A stretch of 64,000 nucleotides of DNA, from assembly GCA_963700695.1 (NCBI GenBank), contig CAVOYO010000012.1, positions 100,393 to 164,392 of the forward strand, read 5' to 3'. This stretch comes from an uncultured Acidobacteriota bacterium. GTDB lineage: Bacteria > Acidobacteriota > Vicinamibacteria > Fen-336. Positions within the stretch are counted from its first letter, which is position 1; each line of letters starts with the position of its first letter. The translations under genes were made by a program, and so were the position numbers. This document shows positions 28,894 to 52,719 of the stretch, one piece after another. Under the pieces are notes generated by a model, which did not search any database, was not told where the DNA came from, and was given only the letters and a program-made list of their open reading frames with translations.

Positions 28894-29925
28894 ATGGGGC
28901 CGGGCTACGACGCGCTTCTTCTGCTGTCCTTCGGCGGTCCGGAGGGACCGGAGGACGTGATGCCGTTCCTCCTCAACGTGCTGCGCGGTCGAAGCATCCC
29001 CCCGGATCGCCTCCGCGAGGTGGCGTCGCACTACGAACACTTCGGCGGGGTGAGCCCGATCAACGGGCAGTGCCGCGCCCTGATCGCCGCGCTGCGCGAG
29101 GAGCTGGAGCGCAACGGCCCGCGGATTCCGGTGTACTGGGGCAACCGCAACTGGCACCCGATGCTCGCCGATACCCTGCGGGAGATGGCGGGGGACGGCG
29201 TTCGTCGCGCCCTCGCGTTCGTCACCTCGGCCTTCAGCTCGTACTCTGGCTGTCGCCAGTACCTCGAAGACATCACGCGAGCCCGGAAGGAGGCTGGGGA
29301 CAGGGCCCCCGTGGTCGCCAAGCTGAGAGGTTTCTACAACCATCCGGGCTTCGTGGAGCCGATGATCGAGCGGGTTGCGGTGGCCCTTGACCTCATTCCC
29401 GAGCCCCGTCGCGCCGAGGCCCGGCTCGTCTACACCGCGCACAGCCTTCCCCGTGCCCTGGCGGCCACCAGCGACTACGAGGCCCAGCTCAAGGAAGCGG
29501 CGGGGCTCGTGACGAGGGGCCTCGGCCGAAACGGCTGGAGCCTCGTGTACCAGAGCCGCAGTGGCCCCCCCGGCCAGCCCTGGCTCGAGCCCGACATCGT
29601 GGACCACCTGAGGGCGCTGGCCGTCGAGGGCGTGCAGGATGTGGTGGTGGCCCCGCTCGGCTTCGTCTCGGATCACATGGAGGTCGTGTACGACCTCGAC
29701 CTCGAGGCGAAGAGCCGGGCGCTGGAGCTGGGCCTGAACATGGTCCGCGCCGGAACCGTGGGCAGCCACCCCCGCTTCGTGCGCATGATCCGGGAGCTCG
29801 TTCTCGAGCGCTTCACGGAGAACCCGGTGCGGCGGCACCTCGGCACCCGCGGGCCCGCCCCGGACCAGTGCCCGGCGGACTGCTGCCCGCCCCCGGCCCG
29901 CCCACCGTCGGACCGCTCCGATTGA
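28894..29925 (+). CDS. hemH: Ferrochelatase
   Basis: LLLSFGGPEGPEDVMPFL N-terminal signature; NRNWHP; SAHSLP motifs. Confidence 0.85.
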   Translation: MGPGYDALLLLSFGGPEGPEDVMPFLLNVLRGRSIPPDRLREVASHYEHFGGVSPINGQCRALIAALREELERNGPRIPVYWGNRNWHPMLADTLREMAGDGVRRALAFVTSAFSSYSGCRQYLEDITRARKEAGDRAPVVAKLRGFYNHPGFVEPMIERVAVALDLIPEPRRAEARLVYTAHSLPRALAATSDYEAQLKEAAGLVTRGLGRNGWSLVYQSRSGPPGQPWLEPDIVDHLRALAVEGVQDVVVAPLGFVSDHMEVVYDLDLEAKSRALELGLNMVRAGTVGSHPRFVRMIRELVLERFTENPVRRHLGTRGPAPDQCPADCCPPPARPPSDRSD

Positions 29926-29933
29926 GGACGAAG

Positions 29934-31082
29934 ATGGCGACGGGACGAAGAAGAGGCAAACCCATGACGAAAGACAGCTCCCCCGGAGAGGGCGAGGGTT
30001 CGCGCTCCGTGCTCTTCACTGGCTTCCCCGGTTTCATCGGAGCGCGTCTCCTCCCCCGGGTTCTCGAGCTCAAGGCCAACACGCGCGCCGTCTGCCTCGT
30101 TCAGGAGAAGTTCATGGACGCCGCCCGCGACGCCGTGGAGGCGGTCGGATCCTCCCACCCCCACACGCGCGGCCGGATCGATCTGGTCACCGGCGACATC
30201 ACCGTTCAGGGGCTCGGGATCCCGGCGAAGGCGGCCCGCGACCTTCGCCGCTCCCTCGCCGAGGCGTATCACCTCGCCGCGGTCTACGACCTGGCGGTCA
30301 AGCGCGACGTCGGCCGACGCATCAACGTCGAGGGGACGAAGAACGTCCTCGAGTTCCTCGACGAGGGTCCGCGCTTCGATCGACTGCACTACGTCTCCAC
30401 CGCCTACGTCTCGGGCACCGCGCGCGGTACCTTCCGCGAGACGGACCTGGACGTGGGCCAGGGCTTCAAGAACCACTACGAGGAGACGAAGTTCCAGGCC
30501 GAGGTCGAGGTCGCCCGCTCGCGCGTCCCCTGCACCATCTACCGACCGGGGATCGTGGTGGGAGACTCGAAGACCGGCGAGACCGTCAAGTTCGACGGCC
30601 CCTACTTCGTGATGCGGGTGATGGAGAAGCTCCCGTCTCCGGGCGTCTTCCTCCGCATCGGCCTCGGTTTCGGCACCGTCAACATCGTGCCGGTCGACTT
30701 CGTGGTCGAGGCCCTCGCGTCCCTCTCCGCGAATCCGATCAGCGCGGGCAAGACCTATCACCTCTGTGATCCCCAGCCGCACGCCCCGGGAGAGCTGGCC
30801 GAGATGTTCGCGGCGGCCATCGGGAAGAAGTTCGTCCAGGTTCCTGTGCCCCTGAAGGTGGCCCGTGCCTTCTTCTCACCGAAGCCGGTACAGCGGTTCT
30901 TCGGCATGCCGGGCGAGGCGCTCGACTACTTCGACGACCCCGTGCGGCACGACACCTCGCTGGCGAGCCAGGACCTGGGGGAGCTCGGGATCGAGTGCCC
31001 GCGCCTCGCCGACTACCTCCCGCGTCTCGTGAAGTTCTACCAGGCCCACCGGGAGAAGATCCGCCGGGAAGCGATGATCTGA
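29934..31082 (+). CDS. SDR-family NAD(P)-dependent epimerase/thioester-reductase-like protein
   Basis: VLFTGFPGFIGARLL Rossmann motif; YxxxK-type core; ~380 aa architecture like male-sterility/thioester reductase domain proteins. Confidence 0.65.
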   Translation: MATGRRRGKPMTKDSSPGEGEGSRSVLFTGFPGFIGARLLPRVLELKANTRAVCLVQEKFMDAARDAVEAVGSSHPHTRGRIDLVTGDITVQGLGIPAKAARDLRRSLAEAYHLAAVYDLAVKRDVGRRINVEGTKNVLEFLDEGPRFDRLHYVSTAYVSGTARGTFRETDLDVGQGFKNHYEETKFQAEVEVARSRVPCTIYRPGIVVGDSKTGETVKFDGPYFVMRVMEKLPSPGVFLRIGLGFGTVNIVPVDFVVEALASLSANPISAGKTYHLCDPQPHAPGELAEMFAAAIGKKFVQVPVPLKVARAFFSPKPVQRFFGMPGEALDYFDDPVRHDTSLASQDLGELGIECPRLADYLPRLVKFYQAHREKIRREAMI

Positions 31083-32105: not shown

Positions 32106-32186
32106 GACGAGCGATTCTACCGCACCGCACCGCCTGGCGTAGAATGAAGCGTTTGTGCCGCGGGCCCCATGCCTGCCGGTGGATCC

Positions 32187-32984
32187 ATGAACAAACTCAT
32201 CCGTCGGGGCATTCTGAGACCCCTCGCACGCACCGGCGGCACCGCGGAGGCCGTGGCCCTTCACGCGGGACAGCTGGCCACTCTCACCTGGGGCGTGGCC
32301 GTCGCCACGCTTCGGGGCCGCGTAGCCCTGCGCGACATCATCGATCAGTTCTGGGCGATGGGGGTGCAGAGCCTCCCCCTCGTGCTGGTCACCGCCGTCA
32401 TCTCCGGGGTCGTGACCACGCAGCAGGGCGGCTACCAGCTCACCTCCACGATCCCCCTCTACGTCCTGGGCAGCGTGGTCGCCTCGAGCGTCGTCCTGGA
32501 GCTCGGCCCGGTTATGACCTCCTTCGTTCTGATCGGCCGCGTGGGCGCGCGGATCACCGCCGAGATCGGCACCATGCAGGTCTCCGAGCAGATCGACGCC
32601 TTGCACTCACTGGGCCGTGACCCGGTGGCCGTCCTGGCCGCACCCCGGATCATCGCCGGCACGATCACCACTCCGCTTCTCGTGTCGATCGCCAACGTCG
32701 TGGGCATCTTCTCGGGCATGTTCGCGGCCCGACTGTTCCTCGGTTTGGGCTACCAGTCGTTTCTCTACGGCGCCCGCATGTACTGGCACAGCTGGGACCT
32801 GCTCTACTCGATCAACAAGGGCATCGTCTTCGGCTTCATCATCCCTCTGATCTCGGTGCACATGGGCTTACGCACGCGCGGGGGCGCCGAAGGAGTCGGG
32901 CGATCGACCACCGCCGCGGTCGTCTTCATGATCATCTCGCTCCTCGTTCTCGACGCCACCTTCCCATCGCTCTTCCTGAACTAG
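32187..32984 (+). CDS. mlaE: MlaE-type ABC transporter permease
   Basis: MNKLIRRGILRP...; 5 TM; conserved MlaE core (QVSEQIDAL, PRIIAGTITTPLL). Confidence 0.85.
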   Translation: MNKLIRRGILRPLARTGGTAEAVALHAGQLATLTWGVAVATLRGRVALRDIIDQFWAMGVQSLPLVLVTAVISGVVTTQQGGYQLTSTIPLYVLGSVVASSVVLELGPVMTSFVLIGRVGARITAEIGTMQVSEQIDALHSLGRDPVAVLAAPRIIAGTITTPLLVSIANVVGIFSGMFAARLFLGLGYQSFLYGARMYWHSWDLLYSINKGIVFGFIIPLISVHMGLRTRGGAEGVGRSTTAAVVFMIISLLVLDATFPSLFLN

Positions 32985-32992
32985 CCGGTCTC

Positions 32993-33793
32993 ATGATCGA
33001 GTACATCGACATCCACAAGGCCTTCGACGTCCCGGTCCTCACCGGGGTGAACCTCACCGTGCAGACCGGCGAGACCCTGTCGATCGTCGGCCCGTCCGGA
33101 ACCGGGAAGAGCGTGCTGCTGAAGACCACGAACGGCCTCCTGGTGCCCGACCAGGGCGACGTGCGGGTGGACGGAGAGTCGGCCTACTTCGACGGCGACG
33201 AGACGCTTCGGCGCATCCGTGGCAAGGTGGGGTACGTCTTCCAGTACGCGGCGCTGTTCGACTCGATGACCGTGTGCGAGAACATCTGCACCGGCCTGCC
33301 CCAGGGCGTGGACATCCGAGCGGGCTGGGTCCTCGAGAAGGTGGCCGAGGCCCTCGAGGACGTGAATCTCGACCCCGAGCAGGTCATGAACAAGCTGCCG
33401 GCGGAGCTCAGCGGTGGGATGCGCAAGCGGGTCGGCCTGGCCCGCTCGATCGTGGGCCGTCCCGAGATCCTTCTCTACGACGAGCCGGTGACCGGGCTCG
33501 ACCCCGTGAACACCGCGGCGGTGTCACGCCTCATCCGCGACATCCGCGACAAGACCCGGGTCACCTCGATCATCGTGACCCACGACATCGAGCAGGCCCT
33601 CGAGATCTCGGACCGGGTCGCGCTCCTCGAGCACGGGGTCCTGCGGTTCATCGGAACGCCCCCGGAGTTCCAGGCGAGCACGGACCCGGTCGTGCGCGCC
33701 TTCGCCGACCGCCGCATGGCCGCCGAGGCCGCCGTCCGCATCATGGAAGCAGATGCGGAGGACCTGAAGAAGGACATGGAGGAAGCGCCGTGA
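32993..33793 (+). CDS. mlaF: MlaF-type ABC transporter ATP-binding protein
   Basis: GPSGTGKSVLLK Walker A; LSGGMRKRVGLARS signature; LLYDEPVTGLDP Walker B. Confidence 0.9.
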   Translation: MIEYIDIHKAFDVPVLTGVNLTVQTGETLSIVGPSGTGKSVLLKTTNGLLVPDQGDVRVDGESAYFDGDETLRRIRGKVGYVFQYAALFDSMTVCENICTGLPQGVDIRAGWVLEKVAEALEDVNLDPEQVMNKLPAELSGGMRKRVGLARSIVGRPEILLYDEPVTGLDPVNTAAVSRLIRDIRDKTRVTSIIVTHDIEQALEISDRVALLEHGVLRFIGTPPEFQASTDPVVRAFADRRMAAEAAVRIMEADAEDLKKDMEEAP

Positions 33794-41870: not shown

Positions 41871-43157
41871 ATGCGTCCCTCCGCCGCTCTCGGCGTATCG
41901 GTCGCCTTCGTCCTGCTGCTGTCCGGCTGCCGCGAGGCGGCACAGGGGCTCGGGGCGGGCCCCGCGGGGCCGGCGGCGGCCGACGACCTCGTCGTCGCCA
42001 TCGCCACCCGTTTCGGCCCGATCGAGCGCGGCGCCCGGTTCGACGCCGCCCGGCCCAAGCTGGCCCGGTCCGCGCTGGTGCCCTCGCGCGTCTTCGATGA
42101 GCCGGGTGTCTGGACGGCGCGGGAGGGGGACTGGCGTCAGATGGACTTCTTCGGGCACCGGGACGGCGAGGCGTACCGGCTCGACGTGCGAGAGTCCGCT
42201 CCGCCCCCGACGGAGCCGGGCGACTACCGGGGTCGCCTGCGCCTGCACCGCATCGAGGATGGCCGGTATGAGTGGAGGATGCGTCAGGAGCTGGCAGTGG
42301 GTCGCCTGCGCGTCGGCGACGTTGCGGAGGCCGCCACCGCGCTGCTCCGCAGCGCCGAAGGTGTCTCCTCGGAGGAGGCCCGAAGCCGTGCCGCGCGGAG
42401 CTTTCCCCGGGCCACCGCGGCCTTCTCCCGTCTCTTCGACCTGGAGACCCTCGAGCTCAAGCCGGAGGGCGGGGGCGCGACGGCGGTCGACCTCGGGATC
42501 CGCCTGACGCCGGAGCGGATCCGGACAGCCATGCCCCGCTACGCCGCCTTCCTGGAGAAGCACGCGGCCCCGATGCGGTGGAACGCGACGCTGACCGACG
42601 CCTCCGGCGCCGCCTGGTGGACGGTGGAGTTCGAGGAGCTTCGGTGGAGGATCCGGTTCCGGGTGCGCGACGGGAGCCTCGTGCCCCTCGAGGGTCCCGC
42701 CGACCGGAGGATACCCTCGCGGCTGCGCGTGGCCTTCGACTACTCGACGAAGGCCGGCCTCTTCACCTTCGGGGTTCGGGGGCTGGTCGCCGACGTCACC
42801 CTCACGCGCCTTCCGGGGGAGAAAGGATACGCGGCGAGCTTCCGCCAGGAGCCCGAGTGGCGACTGCCCTTCCTCGTCAAACCGCTTCTCCGCAGCTCGC
42901 TGCGCTACGCCTTCGAAGGGACGGGCTCGTCGTCGGCGTTCGCCCTGCGGGAGCAGACGGATGGACCCACCGAGCTCGTCCGGGAGTTCGACACCCGGGT
43001 GCGCGAGAGCTGGATCGTCAAGTGGATCGGTGGCGTGGGCGACGCTGCGATGAGCGACTTCCGCAAGGGCGCGGAGTCGGAGTCCGACCGCTACAGCCAA
43101 GAATGCCTGTACGCGCTGCGCGACGACGTCGTGACGCTCCTCAGCGGAGCCAGCTGA
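41871..43157 (+). CDS. Hypothetical lipoprotein
   Basis: MRPSAALGVSVAFVLLLSGC lipobox; coherent non-repetitive 428-aa sequence; family unknown. Upstream part of the track ORF is antisense to the hydrolase gene. Confidence 0.5.
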   Translation: MRPSAALGVSVAFVLLLSGCREAAQGLGAGPAGPAAADDLVVAIATRFGPIERGARFDAARPKLARSALVPSRVFDEPGVWTAREGDWRQMDFFGHRDGEAYRLDVRESAPPPTEPGDYRGRLRLHRIEDGRYEWRMRQELAVGRLRVGDVAEAATALLRSAEGVSSEEARSRAARSFPRATAAFSRLFDLETLELKPEGGGATAVDLGIRLTPERIRTAMPRYAAFLEKHAAPMRWNATLTDASGAAWWTVEFEELRWRIRFRVRDGSLVPLEGPADRRIPSRLRVAFDYSTKAGLFTFGVRGLVADVTLTRLPGEKGYAASFRQEPEWRLPFLVKPLLRSSLRYAFEGTGSSSAFALREQTDGPTELVREFDTRVRESWIVKWIGGVGDAAMSDFRKGAESESDRYSQECLYALRDDVVTLLSGAS

Positions 43158-43249
43158 ACCTTGCGGTTGGTGGGGGTCGCCGTGGGCTGCCCTGGGGCGC
43201 CAGGCGGTCATGTGGGCCATGCGCCGGGGCTGACCCGAAGCTGCTCGGC

Positions 43250-44419
43250 TCAGCCTCCGGCAGGGAAGAGCGACGAGCTCTGCAGATCGGCGAGGAGAGA
43301 CTGCACGGGCAGGATGTCGATGCCGTCCGCGGTTCTCTGTCGACGGCTGCCGCGACAGACAACGATGCGCCGCTTCAGCCCGGGTAGGTTCCCGATGGCC
43401 CGAAGGCCCCGCAGGTCAGCCTCGAAGACCCTCTGGCCGGCCCGCACCTCGAGGGCCACGAGCTCGTCGCCCCGGCGCAGCACGAAGTCCACCTCGAGGC
43501 TCGACCCCTTGCCGGGGGCCCAGTACCCCCAGTCCTCGAAGAGACCGCGGTAGTCCCGATAGGCGCGAAGCACACAGGCCACCCACCCCTCGAAGAGATG
43601 CCCTCGTTCCTCCGCACCGGGTGGTCCGATCTGTCGCTTCATTGCCCGCGGGAGACCTGGATCCGCCCAGTACAGCTTCGGATGGCGGCGCTCACGGACC
43701 CGGAGCCTGGCCTCGAAGGCCGGCAGCCGAAACGCCAGGAGGGTGTCCTCGAGGATCTCGAGGTAGGCCGACACCGTGGAGCGGGCCGCCCCTGCGTCAC
43801 GGGCGATGCCGGAGACGTTCATCACCTCGCCGTGGAAGACGGCCGCCACCGGGAGAAAGCGGGCGAACCCCGGCAGGTTCCGCACCAACGCCTCGGCCTG
43901 CACCTCCTCCTTGAGATAGAGCTGCGCATAGGCGGTGAGTGCCTCACCCCGATCGGGAGCGGTCCAGACGACGGGAAGGGTGCCGTACCGAAGCGCCTCG
44001 TCGAGATCGAAGTCCTGGCCGAGCTCTTCCGGCAGGAAGGGGTGGAGGTGCCGACGCACGGCCCGCCCGGCCAGCAGGTTGGTCCCCGCGGTCTTGAGCT
44101 TGCGCGCGCTCGACCCACACAGGACGAAGCGCAGCCCGCGATCCTCGATGTGGCGATGGACCTCGTTCAGCAAAGCCGGGAGGCGCTGAACCTCGTCGAC
44201 GATGACGAGGGAGTCGGGAGGCAGGGTGCGGAGCTCTCCCGCGAAGGCCCCGGCATCGGCGAGATAGGATTGGTAGAGTGCCTCGTCCAGCAGGTCAACC
44301 CGGTGCCCCTCCGGGAAGACGGCGCGGAGCCAGGTGCTCTTACCGGCGCCCCTTGGCCCGAAGAGGAAGAACGAGCCCCTGGGTGGGGCCAGCATGCGGG
44401 AGTAGATCCGTTTGCTCAT
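43250..44419 (-). CDS. AAA-family ATPase (DUF4143-type)
   Basis: FLFGPRGAGKST Walker A; LVIVDEVQRLP Walker B; C-terminal DUF4143-like region (EVDFV...). Common solitary ATPase family. Confidence 0.7.
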   Translation of the reverse strand: MSKRIYSRMLAPPRGSFFLFGPRGAGKSTWLRAVFPEGHRVDLLDEALYQSYLADAGAFAGELRTLPPDSLVIVDEVQRLPALLNEVHRHIEDRGLRFVLCGSSARKLKTAGTNLLAGRAVRRHLHPFLPEELGQDFDLDEALRYGTLPVVWTAPDRGEALTAYAQLYLKEEVQAEALVRNLPGFARFLPVAAVFHGEVMNVSGIARDAGAARSTVSAYLEILEDTLLAFRLPAFEARLRVRERRHPKLYWADPGLPRAMKRQIGPPGAEERGHLFEGWVACVLRAYRDYRGLFEDWGYWAPGKGSSLEVDFVLRRGDELVALEVRAGQRVFEADLRGLRAIGNLPGLKRRIVVCRGSRRQRTADGIDILPVQSLLADLQSSSLFPAGG

Positions 44420-44671
44420 TATGCCGTCATTTTGTCCCGAAAAATGACGGCATGCAAGGCTGCCAGGGCCCCGACCAGGCGACGGTGGAGGCGTTCTACC
44501 GCCTCCGGCTCACCCCCAACGTGCGCCTCTGTGGCCGCAGCCCGGACCAGGGCGTTTGGCTGCGGGCCGTCGGGATCCTGGACGCGCGGCGCCTCCGCTA
44601 AGGCGGAGGCGCGCCGGGTTCTCAAGGCAGAGAGCCCGGCCAATCCCGCCCCTGGCCCGACAGGGTCTGAC

Positions 44672-46621
44672 TCAGGAGCAGCCGCAGCCGCTCCCGCAGC
44701 CTCCCTGGTGGGCCTGCGGGCCCGCCCGCTGGGTCGCCTTCTCGGTCGCCGCGCCCTGGCCGTTGCCGTTGGCCGGGGCAGCGTGCTGGTGGCCGTCTCC
44801 GTTCCCGTTGCCGCTCTCCACGGACACCACCGGCAGCTTGCGCTTGAGGGCGTTCGGAAGCTCGACGGGGCGGTTCCCGGCGTAGATCTGGTGGCGTCCC
44901 TTCTCTGCGAACCAGTCCTTGGTCGTGGCCACCTGGCGCATCTCCTCGATGATGTTCCGCCAGCCCACCCCGGTGTTGTAGGCGCAGAAGGAGATCTCGC
45001 CCTCCTGGGTCCCGTAGGGGATGACGCACATCTCGGTCCGGCGGAAGTCGTAGTTCCACAGGTCCTGGAACCACATGCTCAGGATCGAGGTCATGCGCCA
45101 GTCACTCTTCTTTCCGGAGTCCTCGCCCTTGACCGTGCCCCCCATCTTCCCGTTGAAGAGCCGCAGCATCTCCATGGGGGTCATCCCCTTAGGTGCCTTC
45201 TCCTTGTCGAAGTTCCGGAGGAACGAGAGGCCGACCTGAGTGAGCGTGAGCGTCCTCCCCCGGGCGGAGTCGACGATCACGTCGAGGTCGCGGAAGAACT
45301 GGTCGAGGTTGAAGAACGACATGAGCGTGGCCCACTCGCCGGTCTTGTGGTTGGCCACCATCATCGTGGCCGCCCCGCAGTTGGGGTGGCAGCCGCAGTT
45401 GAGCTGACCGAAGTCGGACTCGGGCCCCTTCATGTGGTCGGCGAGGGCGGCGAAGGCGGTCGAGGCCCCCAGCGGATACCAGTCGCGGTAGGGGTCGATC
45501 TTGCCACCGTAGTGCTTCGCCAGGTCGTGGGCCAGGTGCGAGGTCGTGTAGCGCTGCTTCAGCCGGTCCTCGTCGCTGATCTCCTCGTCCCGGCCGGTGA
45601 ACGACACCGGCTGGAAGGCCGGGCCGCCCATCTTGTCGTGGTTCTTCAGGCAGAAGTCGAAGATCGGCCCCACCATGTGGTTGTTGACGCCGTTGACGAC
45701 CGTCACTACTGGGGTGATACGAATCCCGGCAGCGGCGATGTTGTCGATGGCGATCTTCCGGACGTCGAACAGGTTCGTGATGTGGCGGTGCGAGTTGGCC
45801 TCGTTGGTGGTCCCGTCGAACTGCAGGTACACCATGTCGAGCCCCGCCTCCTTCGCCTGGACGGCGAACTCGGGCTCGAGGGCGAAGCGGATCCCGTTCG
45901 TCGCGGCCTGGATGAGCTTGTAGCCCACCTTCTTCGCGTAGGCGCAGGCCTCGAGGAAGTGGGGCGACATCGTGGGCTCGCCCCCGGAGTACTGCACCAC
46001 CATCTGCCGCCGGGGCTTGAAGGAGATCGAGTCGTCCAGGATCTTCTTGATCTCGTCGAGCGTCAGCTCGTGCACGTACCCCACCTGGTTGGCGTCCATG
46101 AAGCAGGGGTTGCACATCATGTTGCATCGATTCGTGAGGTCGACGGTCAGGACGGCCCCGCGACCGTAGCGGACGTTCGAGGTGCCGTGGCGGTGCACGA
46201 GCTTGTCGCCGAACGTGCGGAAGTCACGGCCCGGGTAGCGGCTCTCGATGACCTTGTCGAACTCGACGTCGATGGAGCGGATGTCGTCAAACGTGCCGTG
46301 CTGGGGGCAGGTCTTGGAGACCCACAGCTCCTTGCCCTTCTCGTAGAACGTGGCCTTGATCTCGCCGATGTTGCCGTCGACGAGGTCCTTGAGGTCGCGC
46401 TCCCCGTTCAGGATCTGCCTCCGGGTCTCGATGACGCACTGGGGACAGAGCGAGTCGGTCTCTCGGGGGTAGCCGAGGGGAGGCCGCGTCCGCTCGTGCG
46501 ATTTCGGTATCGGCCCCGGCGCCCAGTCCGGCTCGACCGAGCGCCCCTCGGGGACACGGGCGTTGACCGACTGAAAGGCCCGCCAGGCGAGATCGCCGAT
46601 CTGCTGCAGCGTCGTCTCCAT
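44672..46621 (-). CDS. Large radical SAM protein with N-terminal rubredoxin/zinc-ribbon-like CxxC...CxxH motif and Gly/Cys-rich C-terminal tail
   Basis: VDLTNRCNMMCNPCF = CxxxCxxC radical-SAM cluster motif; N-term CPQC...(26)...CPQHG; internal NCGCHPNCG; C-term GGCGSGCGCS; 649 aa. Confidence 0.8.
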   Translation of the reverse strand: METTLQQIGDLAWRAFQSVNARVPEGRSVEPDWAPGPIPKSHERTRPPLGYPRETDSLCPQCVIETRRQILNGERDLKDLVDGNIGEIKATFYEKGKELWVSKTCPQHGTFDDIRSIDVEFDKVIESRYPGRDFRTFGDKLVHRHGTSNVRYGRGAVLTVDLTNRCNMMCNPCFMDANQVGYVHELTLDEIKKILDDSISFKPRRQMVVQYSGGEPTMSPHFLEACAYAKKVGYKLIQAATNGIRFALEPEFAVQAKEAGLDMVYLQFDGTTNEANSHRHITNLFDVRKIAIDNIAAAGIRITPVVTVVNGVNNHMVGPIFDFCLKNHDKMGGPAFQPVSFTGRDEEISDEDRLKQRYTTSHLAHDLAKHYGGKIDPYRDWYPLGASTAFAALADHMKGPESDFGQLNCGCHPNCGAATMMVANHKTGEWATLMSFFNLDQFFRDLDVIVDSARGRTLTLTQVGLSFLRNFDKEKAPKGMTPMEMLRLFNGKMGGTVKGEDSGKKSDWRMTSILSMWFQDLWNYDFRRTEMCVIPYGTQEGEISFCAYNTGVGWRNIIEEMRQVATTKDWFAEKGRHQIYAGNRPVELPNALKRKLPVVSVESGNGNGDGHQHAAPANGNGQGAATEKATQRAGPQAHQGGCGSGCGCS

Positions 46622-46673
46622 CGTCCTCTGCCTCCTCCCGCCCGCCGGCGCGCGTGGGCGCCCGCGGGACCGA

Positions 46674-47783
46674 TCAATGCACGGTGTCCGTCTTGTGGCT
46701 GGACCCGGCTGCCCCCGTGTCCGTCACGTGGTGCGTCACTCCCGCGGCGTCGAGGGCCCGCGCCGTCTCGGCGCCGACCCGCGACGTGGTCTCGACCCAG
46801 CGAACCCGTCCGCCGAGGCGCTCGAGGAGCCGACGGCGAGCCCAGGGCCGATCGAGACCCCCCGGCCACCGCGGCCCGAGACCGCGACACGAGGCCTCGA
46901 GCCACCCGCCCGACAGGACCATCTTGTGGGGCCGAAGCTCGGCGACGTCCTTGTCCGTACGTGCCTCCTGGCCCAGGGCGGTCGTCGTGAGGCCGTCGCC
47001 GACGAAGCCCGCGAGGGCGAGGCGCGTCCCCAGGTCCACCCGGGGGCCTTCGAGGTAGGCCACGTCGCCCTCGGCTGCCGGGTGGGCCCGCAGCCACGGC
47101 TCGAGCCGCGCCATCGCACCGCCGTGGGTCAGGCGGGCGAGCCCTTCCGGGGCTGCGTGCCAGTACGCCTCGCTCCCGGGGTCGATCTGCCGCGACACGG
47201 CGCGGAAGGACTGCGCCCGCTCCGCAGTGTCGAGGATCGAGCCCAGCTCCAGAAAGCGCTCCAGGGGCAGCAGGCCCTCCTCCTCGGGCAGGCCCTCCGC
47301 CACGACCGTGGCGCTGCCGAGTCGGCCCTCCCGACGCAGGCGCTCCGCGCGCTCGACGCTCTCGGGATCCGTGGCGAAAACCGCCCGGACCCCGGCCTGG
47401 CGCAAGATGTCGACGAGGACGGCGTCGGCGAGGTCGTGCTCGAGGCCGACCGACGCCGACCCGAAGCCCATGGCCGCGAAGTCCACGACCGGCCAGAGCC
47501 AGCTGAGCCGGCCGAAGACCGCCACCCGGTCCCCCGGCTCCACCCCCAGCCTCTCCCGGCCGAAGAGGGCGGTGCGGATCGCCAGGCGGTCCAGCTTCCA
47601 GTCGGGCACGAACTCGAATCCACCGTCCGACGGCCAGGCCATGACCGCCGGTCGGACGTGGTGCCGCAGGCCGAGGTCGTAGAGACCGGCCACCGTCTCC
47701 GGGATGCGGTGCAGAGGCCGCGGGCCCTGGCGTCTGGGGGCGTCGTCCCCAAAGACGTCTTCCGCGGTGATGTAGAGCAGCAT
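46674..47783 (-). CDS. AMP-binding (adenylate-forming) N-domain-like protein with degenerate P-loop, truncated (369 aa)
   Basis: Classic ANL N-terminal block GVEPGDRVAVFGRLSWLWPVVDFAAMGFGSASVGLE, but SGTTGxPKG is replaced by AAPEGLARLTHGG; no C-terminal subdomain. 52-nt gap to the radical SAM start. Confidence 0.55.
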   Translation of the reverse strand: MLLYITAEDVFGDDAPRRQGPRPLHRIPETVAGLYDLGLRHHVRPAVMAWPSDGGFEFVPDWKLDRLAIRTALFGRERLGVEPGDRVAVFGRLSWLWPVVDFAAMGFGSASVGLEHDLADAVLVDILRQAGVRAVFATDPESVERAERLRREGRLGSATVVAEGLPEEEGLLPLERFLELGSILDTAERAQSFRAVSRQIDPGSEAYWHAAPEGLARLTHGGAMARLEPWLRAHPAAEGDVAYLEGPRVDLGTRLALAGFVGDGLTTTALGQEARTDKDVAELRPHKMVLSGGWLEASCRGLGPRWPGGLDRPWARRRLLERLGGRVRWVETTSRVGAETARALDAAGVTHHVTDTGAAGSSHKTDTVH

Positions 47784-47787
47784 GGTG

Positions 47788-48315
47788 TCAGCCTCGCAAA
47801 CGTTCCCAGAGTGTGTCGACCAGAGGGTCCCTTATCCCGTGCAGCTCCATCGCGTGCACCAGCGTTCTCACATACTCGGCGCCCGTACCCACGGCCCCGT
47901 GCGCCGCCCTCAGGCGGGCCTCCACCGCCTCCAGGCTCGAGCTGGACGTGGGGGAGCCGTTGCCGTTGGCGTTTCGCGAGACCCAGACCACCGCGTCGAC
48001 GGGCCCGTCCGGGGTCTCCACCGCGCGGGTCTCCCGCCGGCGCTCACGCGTGCCCTCTCGCTTCTCCAGCACCCGCATGACGCGGGCCCGGTCGACGCCG
48101 GGCACGTCGAAGACCAGGCCCCAGCACTCGCCCCCGGGCGAGAGCCCGAGGATGGGGCATGGCGAGTCGGGGCGGCCCCAGCGCTGGTGGGACTCGTGGA
48201 GGAACGCCCGATGGAACCCGGCCAGCCGGCCCGGCCGCGTGCCGTACCGGGCCAGCACCGCGTCCCCCATGAGACTCCCGTAAGCGAACACCTGGGGCAA
48301 CAACTCTCTCCCCAA
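47788..48315 (-). CDS. Gamma-glutamyl cyclotransferase-like (AIG2/GGCT fold) protein
   Basis: VFAYGSLM N-terminal GGCT signature; 175 aa; 4-nt gap to the AMP-binding-like gene. Confidence 0.6.
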   Translation of the reverse strand: MGRELLPQVFAYGSLMGDAVLARYGTRPGRLAGFHRAFLHESHQRWGRPDSPCPILGLSPGGECWGLVFDVPGVDRARVMRVLEKREGTRERRRETRAVETPDGPVDAVVWVSRNANGNGSPTSSSSLEAVEARLRAAHGAVGTGAEYVRTLVHAMELHGIRDPLVDTLWERLRG

Positions 48316-48652
48316 CCGCTGAAAGCGAGCGGCTTGCCAGTACTAGCCAGTTGAGTGCGACTGGGACGATCCGCTGAGTTTAGACGAGACCGGGGGCACG
48401 GGGCAAGGACTTGCTGGGCCACCAGTTTGGGGGCCCTCGGAACCCACTGGACTGGCCGGCAGGCCCCGCGCGCCGGCCTCTCGACGCGGCCTGCCCCCCG
48501 GCCGACGGCGCGCGGGCCCGGTCCTCACGACGGTTGCCTCTTCTGGGGCCCACGGGGGGGCCGCTCCAGGACAACCGCGACCGGGATGTTCCTCTCGATC
48601 CTGCCCATCGAGCGGGAGCTCTGAGCGCATCGGTCGTCAGGTGACGGCCGGG

Positions 48653-49261
48653 TCAGAAGATCGCGGGCCGACAGACTCCGCGATACGAGCTGGGGGCCCG
48701 CCGCATGTGCTCGCTGGCCAGGATGATGTCGTACTGCTCGGAGAAGTCGTTCGAGGACTTGATGCCCAGCTCTTCGCGGACCCCATCGGTGCAGAGGCCC
48801 TGGCGGTTCAGCTGCCTGATCACCTCGTCGACGTACCGGAGCGGATCTTTGACGAGGTAGCAGTTCTCGCACTTCGTGTCATTGAAGTCGAAGAGCTCGG
48901 GGAAGCGCCCGGCGACCGCATCGAGAGCGGCCTCGACCTCTCCCTGGAGGTTGGGGCTCGCGTCGGAGCAGGTCGGGTTGGTCGGGTTGGATGGGGACAG
49001 TCTGCACGAGCCAGGCGGTGGCGGCGGATCATCGGGAGGGGGCCCGGGAGCCTCTGAATCCGGCGATGGTGTGGGCGATGGTGTGGGCGATGGAGCGTCC
49101 GGGACACTTCCCAGCACCGCACTGGAGTCTCCGGTCGGGTTCGACACCCCGCTCGGACCCGTGGGGTCCGGTGCCTCAACCTCCTTGAGCTTCTGGCATC
49201 CGACGAGCAACACAACCGTCACCGCCGCCATCCCCAGCCAGACTCCCGCACGACGCATCAC
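48653..49261 (-). CDS. Hypothetical lipoprotein with Pro/Ser/Thr-rich linker and Cys-containing C-terminal domain
   Basis: LLVGCQK lipobox; PSPTPSPTPSPDSEAPGPPPDDPPPPPGS encoded by tandem 12-nt DNA repeat (49063..49093); C-terminal domain with 6 Cys. Confidence 0.6.
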   Translation of the reverse strand: MMRRAGVWLGMAAVTVVLLVGCQKLKEVEAPDPTGPSGVSNPTGDSSAVLGSVPDAPSPTPSPTPSPDSEAPGPPPDDPPPPPGSCRLSPSNPTNPTCSDASPNLQGEVEAALDAVAGRFPELFDFNDTKCENCYLVKDPLRYVDEVIRQLNRQGLCTDGVREELGIKSSNDFSEQYDIILASEHMRRAPSSYRGVCRPAIF

Positions 49262-49415
49262 CGCCTCCCGGGCGTTGAATCAACTTGAGCAATATGGACT
49301 CAACTGGCCTTGATTGCAAGCTTTCCTGGAGTCTACCCGGGGAGGACGTGGCGAAGCGTCAAGTGCCCGAGCAGAGATCCAGGCTCTGCCCTGCACACGG
49401 CACTCCTTGGAGCTC

Positions 49416-49910
49416 TCAGCCCCTCGAGCATTTCACGTATTTGCAGCGCACGGCGAGTGCTTCCTGTCCATCCGGGGTGATGTTGTACGCCTCCAGCTGA
49501 AAGGTGTTTGGGTCGACCAGCGTGATTTCCGTTCGCCAGCCCCACTCGGGCTGGCCGGCGCCCGCCGAGTAGTGACTCATGAAGATCAACCGGCGACCGT
49601 CCTTCGAGAGCTTGCCCTCGCCCTGCATTGGTGAGGAGCCCGAATGAAAACTGTCGGTCCAGCTGGAATCCCCGTGGGCTATCGAACCCGTGAAGTGAAA
49701 CTCGCCTTGATGCTTCTGTGCCCCTTTGGCCCATTGATAGCTCATGATCCAGGAGCGCTTTCCGGGGTCCTCAGCGACGTGCGCCGACGAATCCGAGCTT
49801 TCCACGGGCGCAGCGGGGTCAGGCCAAAGGTGGTATCGCCCCTGCCACTCCCCCTGTGAGGCGGCGTAGAAGGCCTGGACGTCGCTGGTCTTCTCGGAAG
49901 TGTTGTTCAT
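49416..49910 (-). CDS. Hypothetical protein (DUF1579-like)
   Basis: Start taken at MNNTSEKT; coherent small globular sequence. Confidence 0.4.
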   Translation of the reverse strand: MNNTSEKTSDVQAFYAASQGEWQGRYHLWPDPAAPVESSDSSAHVAEDPGKRSWIMSYQWAKGAQKHQGEFHFTGSIAHGDSSWTDSFHSGSSPMQGEGKLSKDGRRLIFMSHYSAGAGQPEWGWRTEITLVDPNTFQLEAYNITPDGQEALAVRCKYVKCSRG

Positions 49911-49991
49911 GGGTTTGGTGCTCGCGGGGGCGGCGCTGGCGTCGGACGTGCCCAACGCAGGCTCGGTCGTGTTCTGCGGGATCTGGTGGGG

Positions 49992-50402
49992 TCAGGTGAG
50001 TCCCGGACGGATCGCCGCCACGAACGCCAGAAGGTCGTCGAGGTGGTTGCAGAGAACATCTTCGATGACGCCCAGATCCACGTCTTGATAGCCGTGCACG
50101 AGGACATTCCGAAGGCCCGCCATCGCCCGGAGGGTCTCACCCAGCTCCACTGGCACACGGCCGTCCTGCACGAGCAGATCGAACAACTCCCGGTTCGTCT
50201 CGGGTTCTCCCAGCCGGTCGTCGGACACAATATGCGAAGCAACGTCGAGTGCCGCCTGAAGGCCGATCTGGAGCGTGTGTTCGACGAATCGCTGCTCGCG
50301 GATGTCGCTGCGCAAGGCCTCCGGCCGGGCCAGGGAGCGAAGCTGCCCCACGCAGGTTTCGATGACGGCGAGCTTCTTGGCGATGAGGTCTGGATCGGTC
50401 AA
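49992..50402 (-). CDS. hepT: HepT-family (DUF86) RNase toxin of type VII toxin-antitoxin system
   Basis: R-x4-H-x-Y motif in LRNVLVHGY; 136 aa; overlaps mntA by 4 nt. Confidence 0.75.
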   Translation of the reverse strand: MTDPDLIAKKLAVIETCVGQLRSLARPEALRSDIREQRFVEHTLQIGLQAALDVASHIVSDDRLGEPETNRELFDLLVQDGRVPVELGETLRAMAGLRNVLVHGYQDVDLGVIEDVLCNHLDDLLAFVAAIRPGLT

Positions 50403-50797
50403 GCCGGTACCCGACGGTACAGGCGCCGAATGGGCGCGAGATCGAAGTACTCGTTTCGTGACTGGACCTCGAAACGGATGCGGGCAGCCCGATCCCTGTC
50501 CAGGAGCAGGATTCCATCTCGCAGGACGCGGTGGACGAGATCCGCGGGGGCCGTGTTGAGGACGACGACCTGGGCCGCGTGACGAAACGTTCGCTCGACG
50601 GCGTCCTCGAGGTCTCGGGCCACGCTCTTCAGCCTCGCCTCTGGCCTCCGCGCCAGCAACAGCCCGAGATCGATATCGCTCGCAGGCGAGGCGTCTCCAC
50701 GAGCCTGACTACCGTACAGGTAGACCGCGACCGCGTCGGGAGGCACTGAGGACGTCACGACCTCGCGAAGCCGCTCGCGGCTGCTCGGTTCACCCAT
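50399..50797 (-). CDS. mntA: MntA-family nucleotidyltransferase antitoxin
   Basis: LYGSQARGDASPASDIDLGLL = GSx9-13DxD minimal nucleotidyltransferase motif; start at MGEPSSRERL. Confidence 0.75.
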   Translation of the reverse strand: MGEPSSRERLREVVTSSVPPDAVAVYLYGSQARGDASPASDIDLGLLLARRPEARLKSVARDLEDAVERTFRHAAQVVVLNTAPADLVHRVLRDGILLLDRDRAARIRFEVQSRNEYFDLAPIRRLYRRVPA

Positions 50798-50867
50798 GGA
50801 GTCATTATACGAAGGCCTCGTCGGCCAGCGCACCTGTCCAAGCCTGATCTGCGGGACTCTCGAGGAC

Positions 50868-51595
50868 CTACGGGATCCCAGCCAGGCCAGGCTGGGAGGG
50901 GTCCTTTCCGGAACGGCCACCGGCCTCGGTCTCCGGGTCGGAGGCGCGGGGTCGGCGAAGGTCGAGCTTGCGCATGCGGTGGCGCAGCGTGTTCGGGTGA
51001 ATCCCGAGCCGCTCGGCGCCGCCCCCGTCGCCCTCGATGCGCCAGGAGCACCCCTCGAGGACCCGCTCGATGTAGTCCCTCTCGACCTCCTGAAGAGTGC
51101 CCCGGTACCCGCTCGGGCCGTCCCGCGACGGCACGGCCTTGCTGGGGAGCCGGGCGCCCAGCCGCGAGGGCAGTCGGAGCACCCCCTCCGCGGATGTGAT
51201 GACGGCCTGCTCGAGGAGGTTGGACAGCTCCCGAACGTACCCCGGCCACTCGTGGGAGAGGAGCTCGTCCATCAAGGGCTGGGGGATGCTCGCGATCGTC
51301 TTGCCCTGCGCCGCGGCGAATCGGCGGACCGACGTCTCGACCAGCAGGGGGATGTCGTCGCGACGCTGCCGGAGGGGCGGCACCGCGATCGGGAAGACGT
51401 TGAGGCGGTAGAAGAGGCGCCATCACCGGTCGGTCGGCCCGCGAACGCCTCGACGTATCCTTCCCGCACGTCCGACGGGCTGACCTCCTCGATGCTCCGG
51501 CCCAGGAGCTCTTCCGGTGCGAAGCCGGTCAGCTGCGCGACGTACGGATTGACGTAGTTGATGCGACGCTCCCGGTCGAGGGCCAGCGTGCCCAT
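50868..51595 (-). pseudogene. Remnant of a sigma-54-dependent enhancer-binding protein: PAS fragment fused (with frame change) to the last ~50 aa of the AAA+ domain plus Fis-type HTH; Walker A/B and GAFTGA region absent
   Basis: MGTLALDRERRINYVNPYVAQLTGFAPEELLGRSIEEV (PAS), then in another frame RLFYRLNVFPIAVPPLRQRRDDIPLL...HEWPGYVREL...LGIHPNTLRHRMRKLDL. Confidence 0.65.
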
Positions 51596-51699
51596 TCTAG
51601 TTCCCCACGAGAAACGACCGGGGCGCAGCTTTCGACGACTCGCCCCGGCACGACGCATCCGTTCCGGGAAGGTCGGCTCGTGGGACGTTCCCTGAACGA

Positions 51700-52719
51700 T
51701 CAGTCTCCGTCGATCATGTTGCCCAGGCCACCGACCACGTCGAGGATCGACCCTTCTCCCTTGCGGCTGCCTCCGGTCTGGGGCGCGGCCTTGTAGATCC
51801 GGTCGGCCATGCGGCTGAGGGGCAGGGATTGCAGCCACACGCGCCCGGGCCCGGTGAGGGTGGCGAAGAAGAGCCCCTCCCCGCCGAAGAAGGCGGTCTT
51901 GATGCCTCCCACGAACTGGACGTCGTAGCTGACGCTGGGCTGCAGGGCGACGAGGCATCCGGTGTCGACCCGCAAGGTCTCGCCCGCCCCGAGGTGCATC
52001 TCCGTGAGCATGCCTCCGGCGTGGACGAAGCAGAGCCCGTCGCCCTGGAGGCGCTGCATGATGAAGCCCTCCCCCCCGAAGAGCCCCACGCCGATCTTCT
52101 TCTGGAAGGCGATGCTGATGGCCACGCCCTTGGCGGCGCAGAGGAAGGAGTCCTTCTGGCAGATGAGCTCGCCGCCCAGCTCGGGAAGCTCCATGGCGAG
52201 GATCCGACCCGGGTACGGTGCGGCGAAGGCCACCCTCTCCTTCGCCTGGCCGTGCGAGGAGAAGACGGTCATGAAGAGGCTCTCTCCGGTCAGCACGCGC
52301 TTGCCCGCGCCGAGCAGCGCTCCCATGATGCCGGGCTTCTGCTGGCCGCTCGCGTCGCCGAAGATCGTGTCCATCTGGATGCCGGCGGTCATGTACATCA
52401 TGGCCCCGGCCTCCGCGACGCACGCCTCGCCGGGGTCGAGCTCCACCTCGACGAACTGCACGTCCTCGCCCTGGATCTTGTAGTCGATGATGTCCGAGCG
52501 CCGCACCGATGCAGGCATCGGCGGGGGGGCGATCGGCCCGAGGAGCGACGCGAACTTGGGCACGCCCTTGAGCGGCGTCCACGTCTCCATGCCCGCGATG
52601 AAGACCAGGGTCTGGGCGTCGACGCTGCCGTTCTTGATGTTGTTGGCGATGTCCTCCTCGGACACGGGTCCAACCTGCTGGCCGCCCACGGCCATGTACC
52701 ACTGCGGCGTCGAGGACAT
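51700..52719 (-). CDS. AIM24-family (TIGR00266) protein with N-terminal GYF-like DUF4339 domain
   Basis: [26 protein letters not shown]-domain; AIM24 core with [24 protein letters not shown]. Confidence 0.7.

Follow-up and report, generated by a model that had tools for sequence, protein, structure and literature searches.

What product could call for three adjacent genes that encode a gamma-glutamylcyclotransferase, half of an adenylate-forming enzyme stripped of its catalytic motifs, and a large radical S-adenosylmethionine (SAM) enzyme? The question is raised by a 64,000-nucleotide (nt) stretch of DNA, here called the window, from an uncultured soil-type Acidobacteriota bacterium (Vicinamibacteria, Fen-336; assembly GCA_963700695.1, contig CAVOYO010000012.1, positions 100,393 to 164,392 of the forward strand), in which three such genes lie together on the minus strand. 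The triad is a real unit, and its last gene encodes a relative of the archaeal tetraether lipid synthase (Tes; GDGT-MAS). The matter is of wider interest: brGDGTs, the branched glycerol dialkyl glycerol tetraethers, rank with the proxies most often used for past temperature and pH on land, and their producers and enzymes are still uncertain.

The open reading frame (ORF) list of the window contains three co-directional minus-strand ORFs at 47788-48315, 46674-47783 and 44672-46621, encoding 175, 369 and 649 amino acids (aa), respectively. The gaps between them measure 4 nt (ChaC-like to ANL-like) and 52 nt (ANL-like to Tes-like), exactly the tight packing that a preliminary description of this locus, made from the letters of the sequence, had reported. 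The motifs quoted there (VFAYGSLM, AAPEGLARLTHGG, CNMMCNPC, CPQC...CPQHG, NCGCHPNCG and GGCGSGCGCS) were likewise all found. The G+C fraction at third codon positions was 0.90-0.95 in all three ORFs, as in other genuine genes of this window of ~70% GC. No transmembrane segment was predicted in any of the three proteins, which is consistent with soluble or peripheral proteins such as GDGT-MAS.

The 649-aa product of the third gene (44672-46621) was characterized by family models, by comparison with the PDB and by its metal sites. Pfam recognized a Radical_SAM domain and the HMPTM zinc ribbon (residues 52-114), the top NCBIfam match was the Tes model NF045702 (E 1.8e-87, 294 bits), and a phmmer search of the PDB aligned query residues 87-560 with residues 35-502 of 7tol_A, a GDGT-MAS chain (E 2.8e-52). 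The best sequence match was Tes/GDGT-MAS and not an unrelated radical SAM family; these matches, together with the ligand alignment described next, sustained the earlier suggestion of a Tes/GDGT-MAS-type enzyme with a rubredoxin-like N-terminus. The second-best NCBIfam match was TrsS, about whose function nothing usable was found in the literature.

Metal-site definitions were taken from the structural study of the archaeal enzyme MJ0619 (PMC9433317) and checked in an alignment of 80 bacterial homologues with GDGT-MAS. Three of the four sites were kept in all 80 homologues: the rubredoxin-type site CX2C...CX2H (C59/C62/C105/H108 in the window protein), the radical-SAM CX3CX2C cluster (C166/C170/C173), and the C-terminal auxiliary [4Fe-4S] cluster (C415/C532/C546) with M516, the counterpart of Met439 in GDGT-MAS. 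Judged from this alignment, the parts of Tes to which catalysis is ascribed are all retained, these being the SAM cluster and the C-terminal one. The fourth site, the N-terminal auxiliary [4Fe-4S] cluster, is gone. The CPYDCGLC segment that supplies C73, C77 and C80 is deleted in the window protein and in 80/80 bacterial homologues, and only the His of this cluster could be aligned (H145). Two other cysteines, C409 and C411, are invariant in all 80 homologues as part of a CxCHPNCG motif of which GDGT-MAS has only the last Cys, and a C-terminal Cys-rich tail, CGxGCGC[HS] (GGCGSGCGCS in the window protein), occurs in the clade with the ANL-like partner and in a few other homologues. C409/C411 and the tail may form a different auxiliary metal site that offsets the lost N-terminal cluster. 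The protein should best be called Tes-like, not Tes, because homology and three of four metal sites are present whereas the score lies below the equivalog cut-off and the N-terminal cluster is missing.

The second gene (46674-47783) encodes a protein whose sequence resembles the ANL superfamily only in part. A Pfam AMP-binding match obtained with the single sequence was confined to residues 78-168 (E 1e-11), and a profile of 56 diverse family members matched 169 ANL chains of the PDB (best E 5e-12) over residues ~58-174 only; a shallow family profile gave merely marginal ANL matches in the PDB, and the deeper profile was required. The fold was established with an AlphaFold2 model built from the 56-sequence alignment of 50%-cluster representatives, which reached a predicted local distance difference test (pLDDT) score of 92.9 and a predicted template-modelling (TM) score of 0.89. 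An earlier run on a shallow alignment (21 sequences, at least 61% identical) had given a pLDDT of 55 and was discarded. Using Foldseek, the whole model matched 608 ANL chains of the PDB at E<=1e-3, with TM scores of 0.6-0.69 and 11-19% identity over ~340-400 columns, the matched parts being the N-terminal domains of carboxylic acid reductase (CAR) A-domains, FadD5, acetyl-CoA synthetase and luciferases.

What the protein lacks is equally consistent across its family. None of the 56 aligned members fits the canonical or a relaxed pattern of the P-loop (A3, [ST][ST]G[ST][ST]GxPK), and the corresponding region is a variable loop. These members are 321-398 aa long, and all 150 representative matches listed have at most 463 aa; the C-terminal domain with the catalytic Lys (A10) is absent, the family proteins being too short to hold it. 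In its place, so to speak, the family has signatures of its own, PDW..DR..IR.AL and LDTxERAxxxR, along with invariant R66, T186 and G264. It comprises 243 clusters at 90% identity, with 98 representatives at E<=1e-30 and ~200 at E<=1e-10. The preliminary description had proposed an ANL N-domain with a degenerate P-loop and no C-terminal domain that would probably be non-adenylating, and the profile search, the AlphaFold2/Foldseek comparison and the 56-member alignment all agree with it. By its sequence the protein cannot adenylate, and its gene, which is under strong purifying selection and not decaying, encodes a non-adenylating domain derived from the ANL superfamily.

The first gene (47788-48315) encodes a member of the ChaC family. 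The Pfam ChaC model PF04752 matched with an E-value of 7e-18. The score of 65.7 bits exceeds the cut-off of 21, and the match takes in positions 3-168 of the 176 in the profile; the GGACT match was weaker. Its sole sequence relatives in the PDB were the human ChaC2 structures 6K95, 6KY0 and 6KY1, at weak similarity. YGSL, R86-E87 (the pair holding the catalytic Glu) and G..EY were invariant across eight orthologues aligned with human ChaC2, and the ChaC2 chains of the PDB were aligned independently. The fold originally proposed for the first protein, that of gamma-glutamylcyclotransferases, is borne out by all three lines of evidence, and on the strength of its conserved residues the protein appears to be a catalytically competent gamma-glutamylcyclotransferase. 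The gene most likely starts at the TTG at 48300 and encodes 170 aa, five fewer than the maximal ORF, because the 170-aa protein-collection record (P0392) and the N-termini of orthologues agree on this start. The subfamily comprises 292 clusters, and all members examined are the first gene of a triad. The ChaC-like and ANL-like families are thus similar in size, and the Tes-like family, with more than 8000 matches, is far larger than either.

Conservation of the three-gene order was assessed in two scans. In the first, species-representative genomes were searched with the radical SAM alignment, and 80 loci were returned. An ANL-like gene lies directly 5' of the Tes-like gene in eight of these (L001-L006, L010 and L013), preceded by a ChaC-like gene in L001-L003. 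In the second, metagenomes were searched with the ANL-like alignment, which yielded 49 loci, and adjacency was counted where at least 250 nt of flanking sequence were present. A ChaC-like gene preceded the ANL-like gene in 47/47 loci with enough upstream sequence, and a Tes-like gene followed it in 27 of the 28 with enough downstream sequence, the exception being a partial match of 34 residues. Six long contigs with called genes (L081-L084, L134 and L135) showed the domain order ChaC, AMP-binding, Zn_ribbon_HMPTM/Radical_SAM; their flanking genes were wholly different in each, and the ChaC-ANL gap was 4-8 nt in all. Two distant ANL-like representatives, 33% and 27% identical to that of the window by tblastn, still adjoin Tes-like genes, and one of them also has the ChaC-like gene. 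Altogether, an ANL-like gene stood beside a Tes homologue wherever the contig reached far enough to tell, and the neighbourhood conservation that the preliminary description had looked to was strong in the metagenome loci, the long contigs and the distant members alike.

The nearest named relatives of the window's triad proteins are Vicinamibacteria (= subdivision 6). In a neighbour-joining tree, the ANL-partnered Tes-like proteins form one clade, with members from Acidobacteriota, Gemmatimonadota and a Myxococcales metagenome-assembled genome (MAG), and a partner-less Latescibacterota clade is its sister. In one member, L013 (6993-9794; an Acidobacteriota MAG, CAVROO010000036.1), a shortened ANL-like domain runs on into the Tes-like protein without an intervening stop codon, the whole forming one ORF of 933 aa. 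Clustering of all ORFs in the 80 loci revealed no universal partner of bacterial Tes homologues.

The operon is also set apart by its upstream region. Intergenic DNA of 337 nt (48316-48652) separates the first ORF from the stop codon of a lipoprotein-like gene (48653-49261). When the upstream regions of 16 triad loci were aligned with MAFFT, CTTGC-N17/18-TA[AG]ACT was the sole block kept in 16/16, at ~60-70 nt 5' of the first start codon. The window copy, on the minus strand at 48377-48406, consists of a -35 element TTGCCC (48406-48401), an 18-nt spacer and a -10 element TAAACT (48382-48377), and its conservation suggests that it acts as the promoter. A consensus promoter scan of the window did not pick up this element, in which only 8 of 12 consensus positions match. 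The 337-bp leader of the preliminary description was therefore right in length and is otherwise mostly unconserved spacer, the conserved promoter leaving a 5' untranslated region (UTR) of only ~60-70 nt. The idea that this leader might hold an RNA structure or a small precursor ORF found no backing: an Rfam scan of 43000-50000 at E<=1 returned no riboswitch or leader RNA, just one chance microRNA match, and there is no room for a conserved small ORF. At the other end, ~200 nt past the radical SAM stop codon, a consensus scan picked up a weak terminator-like hairpin with a T-run (44448-44465, minus strand; 5-bp stem with three G-C pairs). Such sites numbered 3 against 1.4 expected by chance, so that this hairpin is a possible, weakly evidenced end of the operon. 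The triad, whose genes are tightly packed behind a conserved promoter of their own, is a self-contained operon.

Genes next to the Tes-like gene in relatives provide some information about the class of product. A B12 radical SAM gene lies directly downstream of it in L003 (10055-11539) and L005 (9912-11429), both Gemmatimonadota, and the nearest match of the two encoded proteins is HpnR, the hopanoid C-3 methylase, with scores of ~340-350 bits where the cut-off is 650. The HpnR-like class is the one expected for C-methylation of lipid chains, for instance in brGDGT methylation. Additionally, an OlsC/LpxO-like acyl hydroxylase gene lies upstream in L006, which brings the loci of the ANL-partnered clade with lipid-modifying neighbours to three.

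Considering these observations, we propose that the radical SAM protein works like Tes. 5'-Deoxyadenosyl radicals would take hydrogen from the terminal methyl of a lipid tail, the likely substrate being a saturated, methyl-branched tail such as iso-C15; the substrate radical would be parked on a sulfide of the C-terminal [4Fe-4S] cluster, and a second tail radical would close a tail-to-tail C-C bond, giving a membrane-spanning lipid of the iso-diabolic-acid or branched-GDGT type. Several published findings fit such a scheme. GDGT-MAS forms a C-S intermediate on its C-terminal cluster and binds ester-linked phospholipids of E. coli (PMC9433317), the isopropyl end of phytanyl chains is shared by iso-C15 tails (PMC8941075), bacterial Tes homologues were proposed as brGDGT synthases in 2022 (PMC8941075, PMC10087280), and Acidobacteria of subdivisions 1, 3, 4 and 6 produce iso-diabolic acid yet lack mss (PMC13159169). 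Tail-to-tail lipid coupling by a Tes-like enzyme with two partners is, in our judgement, probable by a modest measure, and the substrate, the product, the formation of a complex and the roles of both partners are all inferred.

In this proposal, the ANL-like protein would be a non-catalytic partner or subunit of the synthase, because it is always adjacent where this could be assessed, is fused to it once, and is conserved without catalytic motifs. It might plausibly hold or present the lipid tail, or dock the complex on the membrane. Docking on membranes is known for N-domains of acyl-CoA synthetases, that of FadD13 for example. The co-transcribed ChaC-type enzyme may serve glutathione or thiol turnover tied to the Fe-S chemistry or, alternatively, may strip a gamma-glutamyl group from the substrate or head group. 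A stronger version, in which the synthase could not do without the dead ANL N-domain as a subunit that presents lipid or docks on the membrane, the ChaC-type enzyme would be a required helper and the triad as a whole the functional unit, is put forward tentatively and is in our view rather doubtful.

A number of observations weigh against lipid coupling by the triad. The Tes-like protein scores 294 bits with NF045702, under the equivalog cut-off of 450, it lacks the N-terminal [4Fe-4S] cluster of GDGT-MAS, and it has the additional invariant C409 and C411 and the Cys-rich tail. To our knowledge, no lipid chemistry requires a gamma-glutamylcyclotransferase. No ether-lipid or other dedicated lipid genes were found flanking the operon in the window, where the flanks include genes for a DUF4143 AAA ATPase, a DUF1579 protein, a HepT/MntA pair, a sigma-54 activator remnant, peptidases, a dienelactone hydrolase, a ZIP transporter and MsrB, all unrelated to lipid-tail chemistry. 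Amongst the relatives, a 69%-identical Tes-like gene on a contig of 6.5 Mb (L138) has neither partner adjacent, the Bryobacterales/Solibacter-like loci, from the lineage of known brGDGT producers, are without both, and the L013 fusion is a case from a single MAG that may be natural or an assembly artefact and is supportive, not decisive. In the literature, only 3 of 14 iso-diabolic-acid-producing Acidobacteria had Tes homologues (PMC13159169), and papers and preprints of 2025-2026 report no experimentally validated bacterial Tes homologue.

The main alternative, which we consider unlikely, is a different substrate: the triad would make or modify a product other than a membrane-spanning lipid, applying related radical C-C or C-S chemistry to another hydrophobic or gamma-glutamylated metabolite, from which the ChaC-type enzyme would remove the gamma-glutamyl group as BtrG does. 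BtrG removes such a group in butirosin biosynthesis. The sub-threshold Tes score and the altered cluster complement would suit an enzyme that works on another substrate, and the strict co-inheritance of an apparently active gamma-glutamylcyclotransferase, for which lipid coupling offers no explanation, would be accounted for; PaaK-like ligase and PhzF-like genes beside some relatives point the same way. Set against this are the full-length homology to GDGT-MAS with the catalytic C-terminal cluster and its Met ligand kept, and the make-up of the unit itself, which includes no conserved ligase, carrier protein or precursor gene and whose flanks differ from locus to locus. The neighbours that do recur in relatives are of lipid-modifying types.

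Less probable still, and in our estimate quite improbable, is that the Tes-like enzyme acts alone and its two neighbours are merely co-regulated with it, for example to keep thiols or redox state in order when the synthase is induced. Such independence would fit the ~70 of the 80 genome loci of bacterial Tes homologues that carry neither partner, the partner-less L138 relative, and the finding that archaeal Tes needs no partner in heterologous hosts (PMC8941075). It sits poorly with the ANL-like family, which accompanies a Tes-like gene in every assessable locus, distant members at 23-33% identity included, lacks catalytic motifs and yet experiences strong purifying selection, and forms one ORF with the synthase in L013. 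In the six long contigs the ChaC-ANL gap stays at 4-8 nt, which also speaks for a closer tie than shared regulation.

The preliminary description had held that the partner genes could equally indicate peptide- or amino-acid-derived chemistry, and a related possibility is that the radical SAM protein is a SPASM/twitch maturase for peptides that are made by the ribosome and modified after translation (RiPPs), acting on a small precursor encoded in the leader. Weak NCBIfam matches to PqqE, the mycofactocin maturase and PapB recall such enzymes; these matches cover the radical-SAM core only and reach 30-55 bits, as compared to 294 bits for Tes. With so little UTR behind the conserved promoter and gene gaps of just 4 and 52 nt, a precursor ORF has no place in the operon, and the rest of the intergenic region is unconserved and without an Rfam match. 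A RiPP maturase is for these reasons effectively refuted and very improbable. The broader peptide or amino-acid alternative likewise found no support, the ANL-like protein being unable to adenylate. Weakest of all, with next to no probability, is the activity that older annotation gave to MJ0619, that of a 7,8-dihydro-6-hydroxymethylpterin dimethyltransferase, which lives on in the Pfam name Zn_ribbon_HMPTM and in JGI names on a few homologues; we know of no methanopterin synthesis in bacteria of these phyla. That annotation has been superseded by the structural and biochemical work on MJ0619, which could not corroborate the activity and showed a lipid-binding active site (PMC9433317).

Other features of the relatives' loci and of the window are given here for completeness. 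A gene for a PhzF-family isomerase-like protein adjoins the Tes-like gene in L004 (3771-4733), which has the ANL-like partner, and in L138 (7923-8723), which does not; the PaaK-like ligase mentioned above is found beside the Tes-like genes of some relatives, and other bacterial Tes-homologue loci adjoin a FAD oxidase or a threonine synthase gene. Between ~10 and 23 Tes-like genes of Pyrinomonadaceae/Blastocatellia (L014-L036) adjoin, on their upstream side, lpxD-, lpxB- and lptD-like genes of lipid A synthesis and transport, which is a different, lineage-specific envelope-lipid context.

In the window, an AAA_14/DUF4143 ATPase gene (43250-44419, minus strand) comes immediately after the operon on its downstream side. 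Near the Tes-like gene of one Bryobacterales locus (L072) there is a copy with 41% identity, and the ATPase is otherwise not conserved with the operon. About 1.7 kb upstream of the operon, what look like a HepT/MntA toxin-antitoxin pair occupy 49992-50920 on the minus strand: the genes for a HepT-like ribonuclease (49992-50402; Pfam HepT-like, E 1e-27) and an MntA-type nucleotidyltransferase (50399-50920; Polbeta/NTP_transf_2) share 4 nt. Abutting this pair is what appears to be the remnant of a sigma-54-dependent activator (50868-52700, minus strand). Just an AAA+ lid and a Fis-type helix-turn-helix remain in frame (50868-51383); a PAS-like fragment can be read farther upstream in a different frame, and the ATPase core is apparently missing. 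Farther away, ~13.6 kb from the operon, a plus-strand gene (29868-31082) encodes a stand-alone 404-aa NAD_binding_4 ('male sterility') protein of the thioester or fatty-acyl reductase type, closest to the PRK07201 short-chain dehydrogenase/reductase and thioester-reductase models. Reductases of this type make fatty aldehydes or alcohols for ether lipids, and no link of this gene to the operon was shown. Components of a phospholipid-trafficking transporter, an MlaE permease and an MlaF-like ABC ATPase, are encoded at 32169-33793 on the plus strand, and a ketoacyl synthase gene further off in the window is likewise not linked to the operon.

Full-text literature searches found no description of a ChaC/dead-ANL/Tes-like operon or of partner genes for Tes, in keeping with the earlier remark that the combination is not a described system. 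Only the partner genes are new, bacterial Tes homologues being already published candidates for brGDGT synthesis (PMC8941075, PMC10087280). What the triad adds is that one clade spanning several phyla inherits a Tes homologue together with two specific partner proteins, of which the ANL-like pseudo-enzyme belongs to a family that seems to exist only for this association. The case illustrates cleanly how a radical SAM enzyme can come to have, as its non-catalytic partner, a domain reused from adenylate-forming enzymes. For studies of brGDGT origin, a vague candidate gene is replaced by a defined set of three genes that can be tested, and the triad marks some of the potential producers more sharply at the genome level; no prior result is overturned. 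If the triad is indeed the functional unit, it would be the maker of iso-diabolic-acid or branched-tetraether lipids in aerobic Vicinamibacteria and Gemmatimonadota of the soil, it could account for the lack, so far, of any validated Tes homologue from bacteria, and a first set of genetic markers would be at hand for one group of the organisms that make the brGDGT palaeothermometer lipids.

The triad can be compared with several known systems. With archaeal Tes/GDGT-MAS (MJ0619; 7TOL/7TOM; NF045702), the window protein shares homology over ~470 residues. It differs in an N-terminal extension of ~50 aa, in a rubredoxin insert of 42 rather than 20 residues, in the loss of the N-terminal-cluster CX3CX2C, in C409, C411 and the Cys tail, and in a score below the equivalog cut-off. 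Its host is a bacterium with ester-linked, iso-branched lipids, and its gene is accompanied by two partners that archaeal Tes lacks. Mss of Thermotoga and Clostridia (Sahonero-Canavesi 2022) is also a radical SAM enzyme for a tail-to-tail C-C bond between two fatty acyl chains, a reaction that is proposed in the case of the triad. By description only, Mss differs in being remotely related to Tes, in occurring in anaerobes and in being absent from Acidobacteria (PMC13159169).

The two partners also depart from their own families. The ANL-like protein has the N-domain fold of the ANL superfamily (FadD5/FadD13, CAR A-domains, luciferases) and an A1-A2 region recognizable by sequence, whereas its family is without the P-loop, the C-terminal domain and the catalytic Lys, has invariant motifs of its own, and is seen only beside Tes-like genes. 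The ChaC-like protein has the Pfam family, the YGSL motif, the Arg-Glu pair and the size (~165-175 aa) of the glutathione-specific ChaC/ChaC2 enzymes, and differs from them in belonging to a narrow subfamily tied to the triad.

The bacterial Tes homologues of Ca. Solibacter usitatus, Ca. Koribacter and Edaphobacter (Zeng 2022, Halamka 2022) belong to the same bacterial family as the window protein. The window gene is 50-57% identical to those of Bryobacterales/Solibacteraceae loci, the metal-ligand pattern is identical, and a role in brGDGT synthesis is hypothetical for both alike. The window gene nevertheless falls in a separate clade of Vicinamibacteria-like Acidobacteriota, Gemmatimonadota and some Myxococcota, and whereas the Solibacter-type loci have neither partner, this clade has gained the ANL-like one and, in most cases, the ChaC-like one too.

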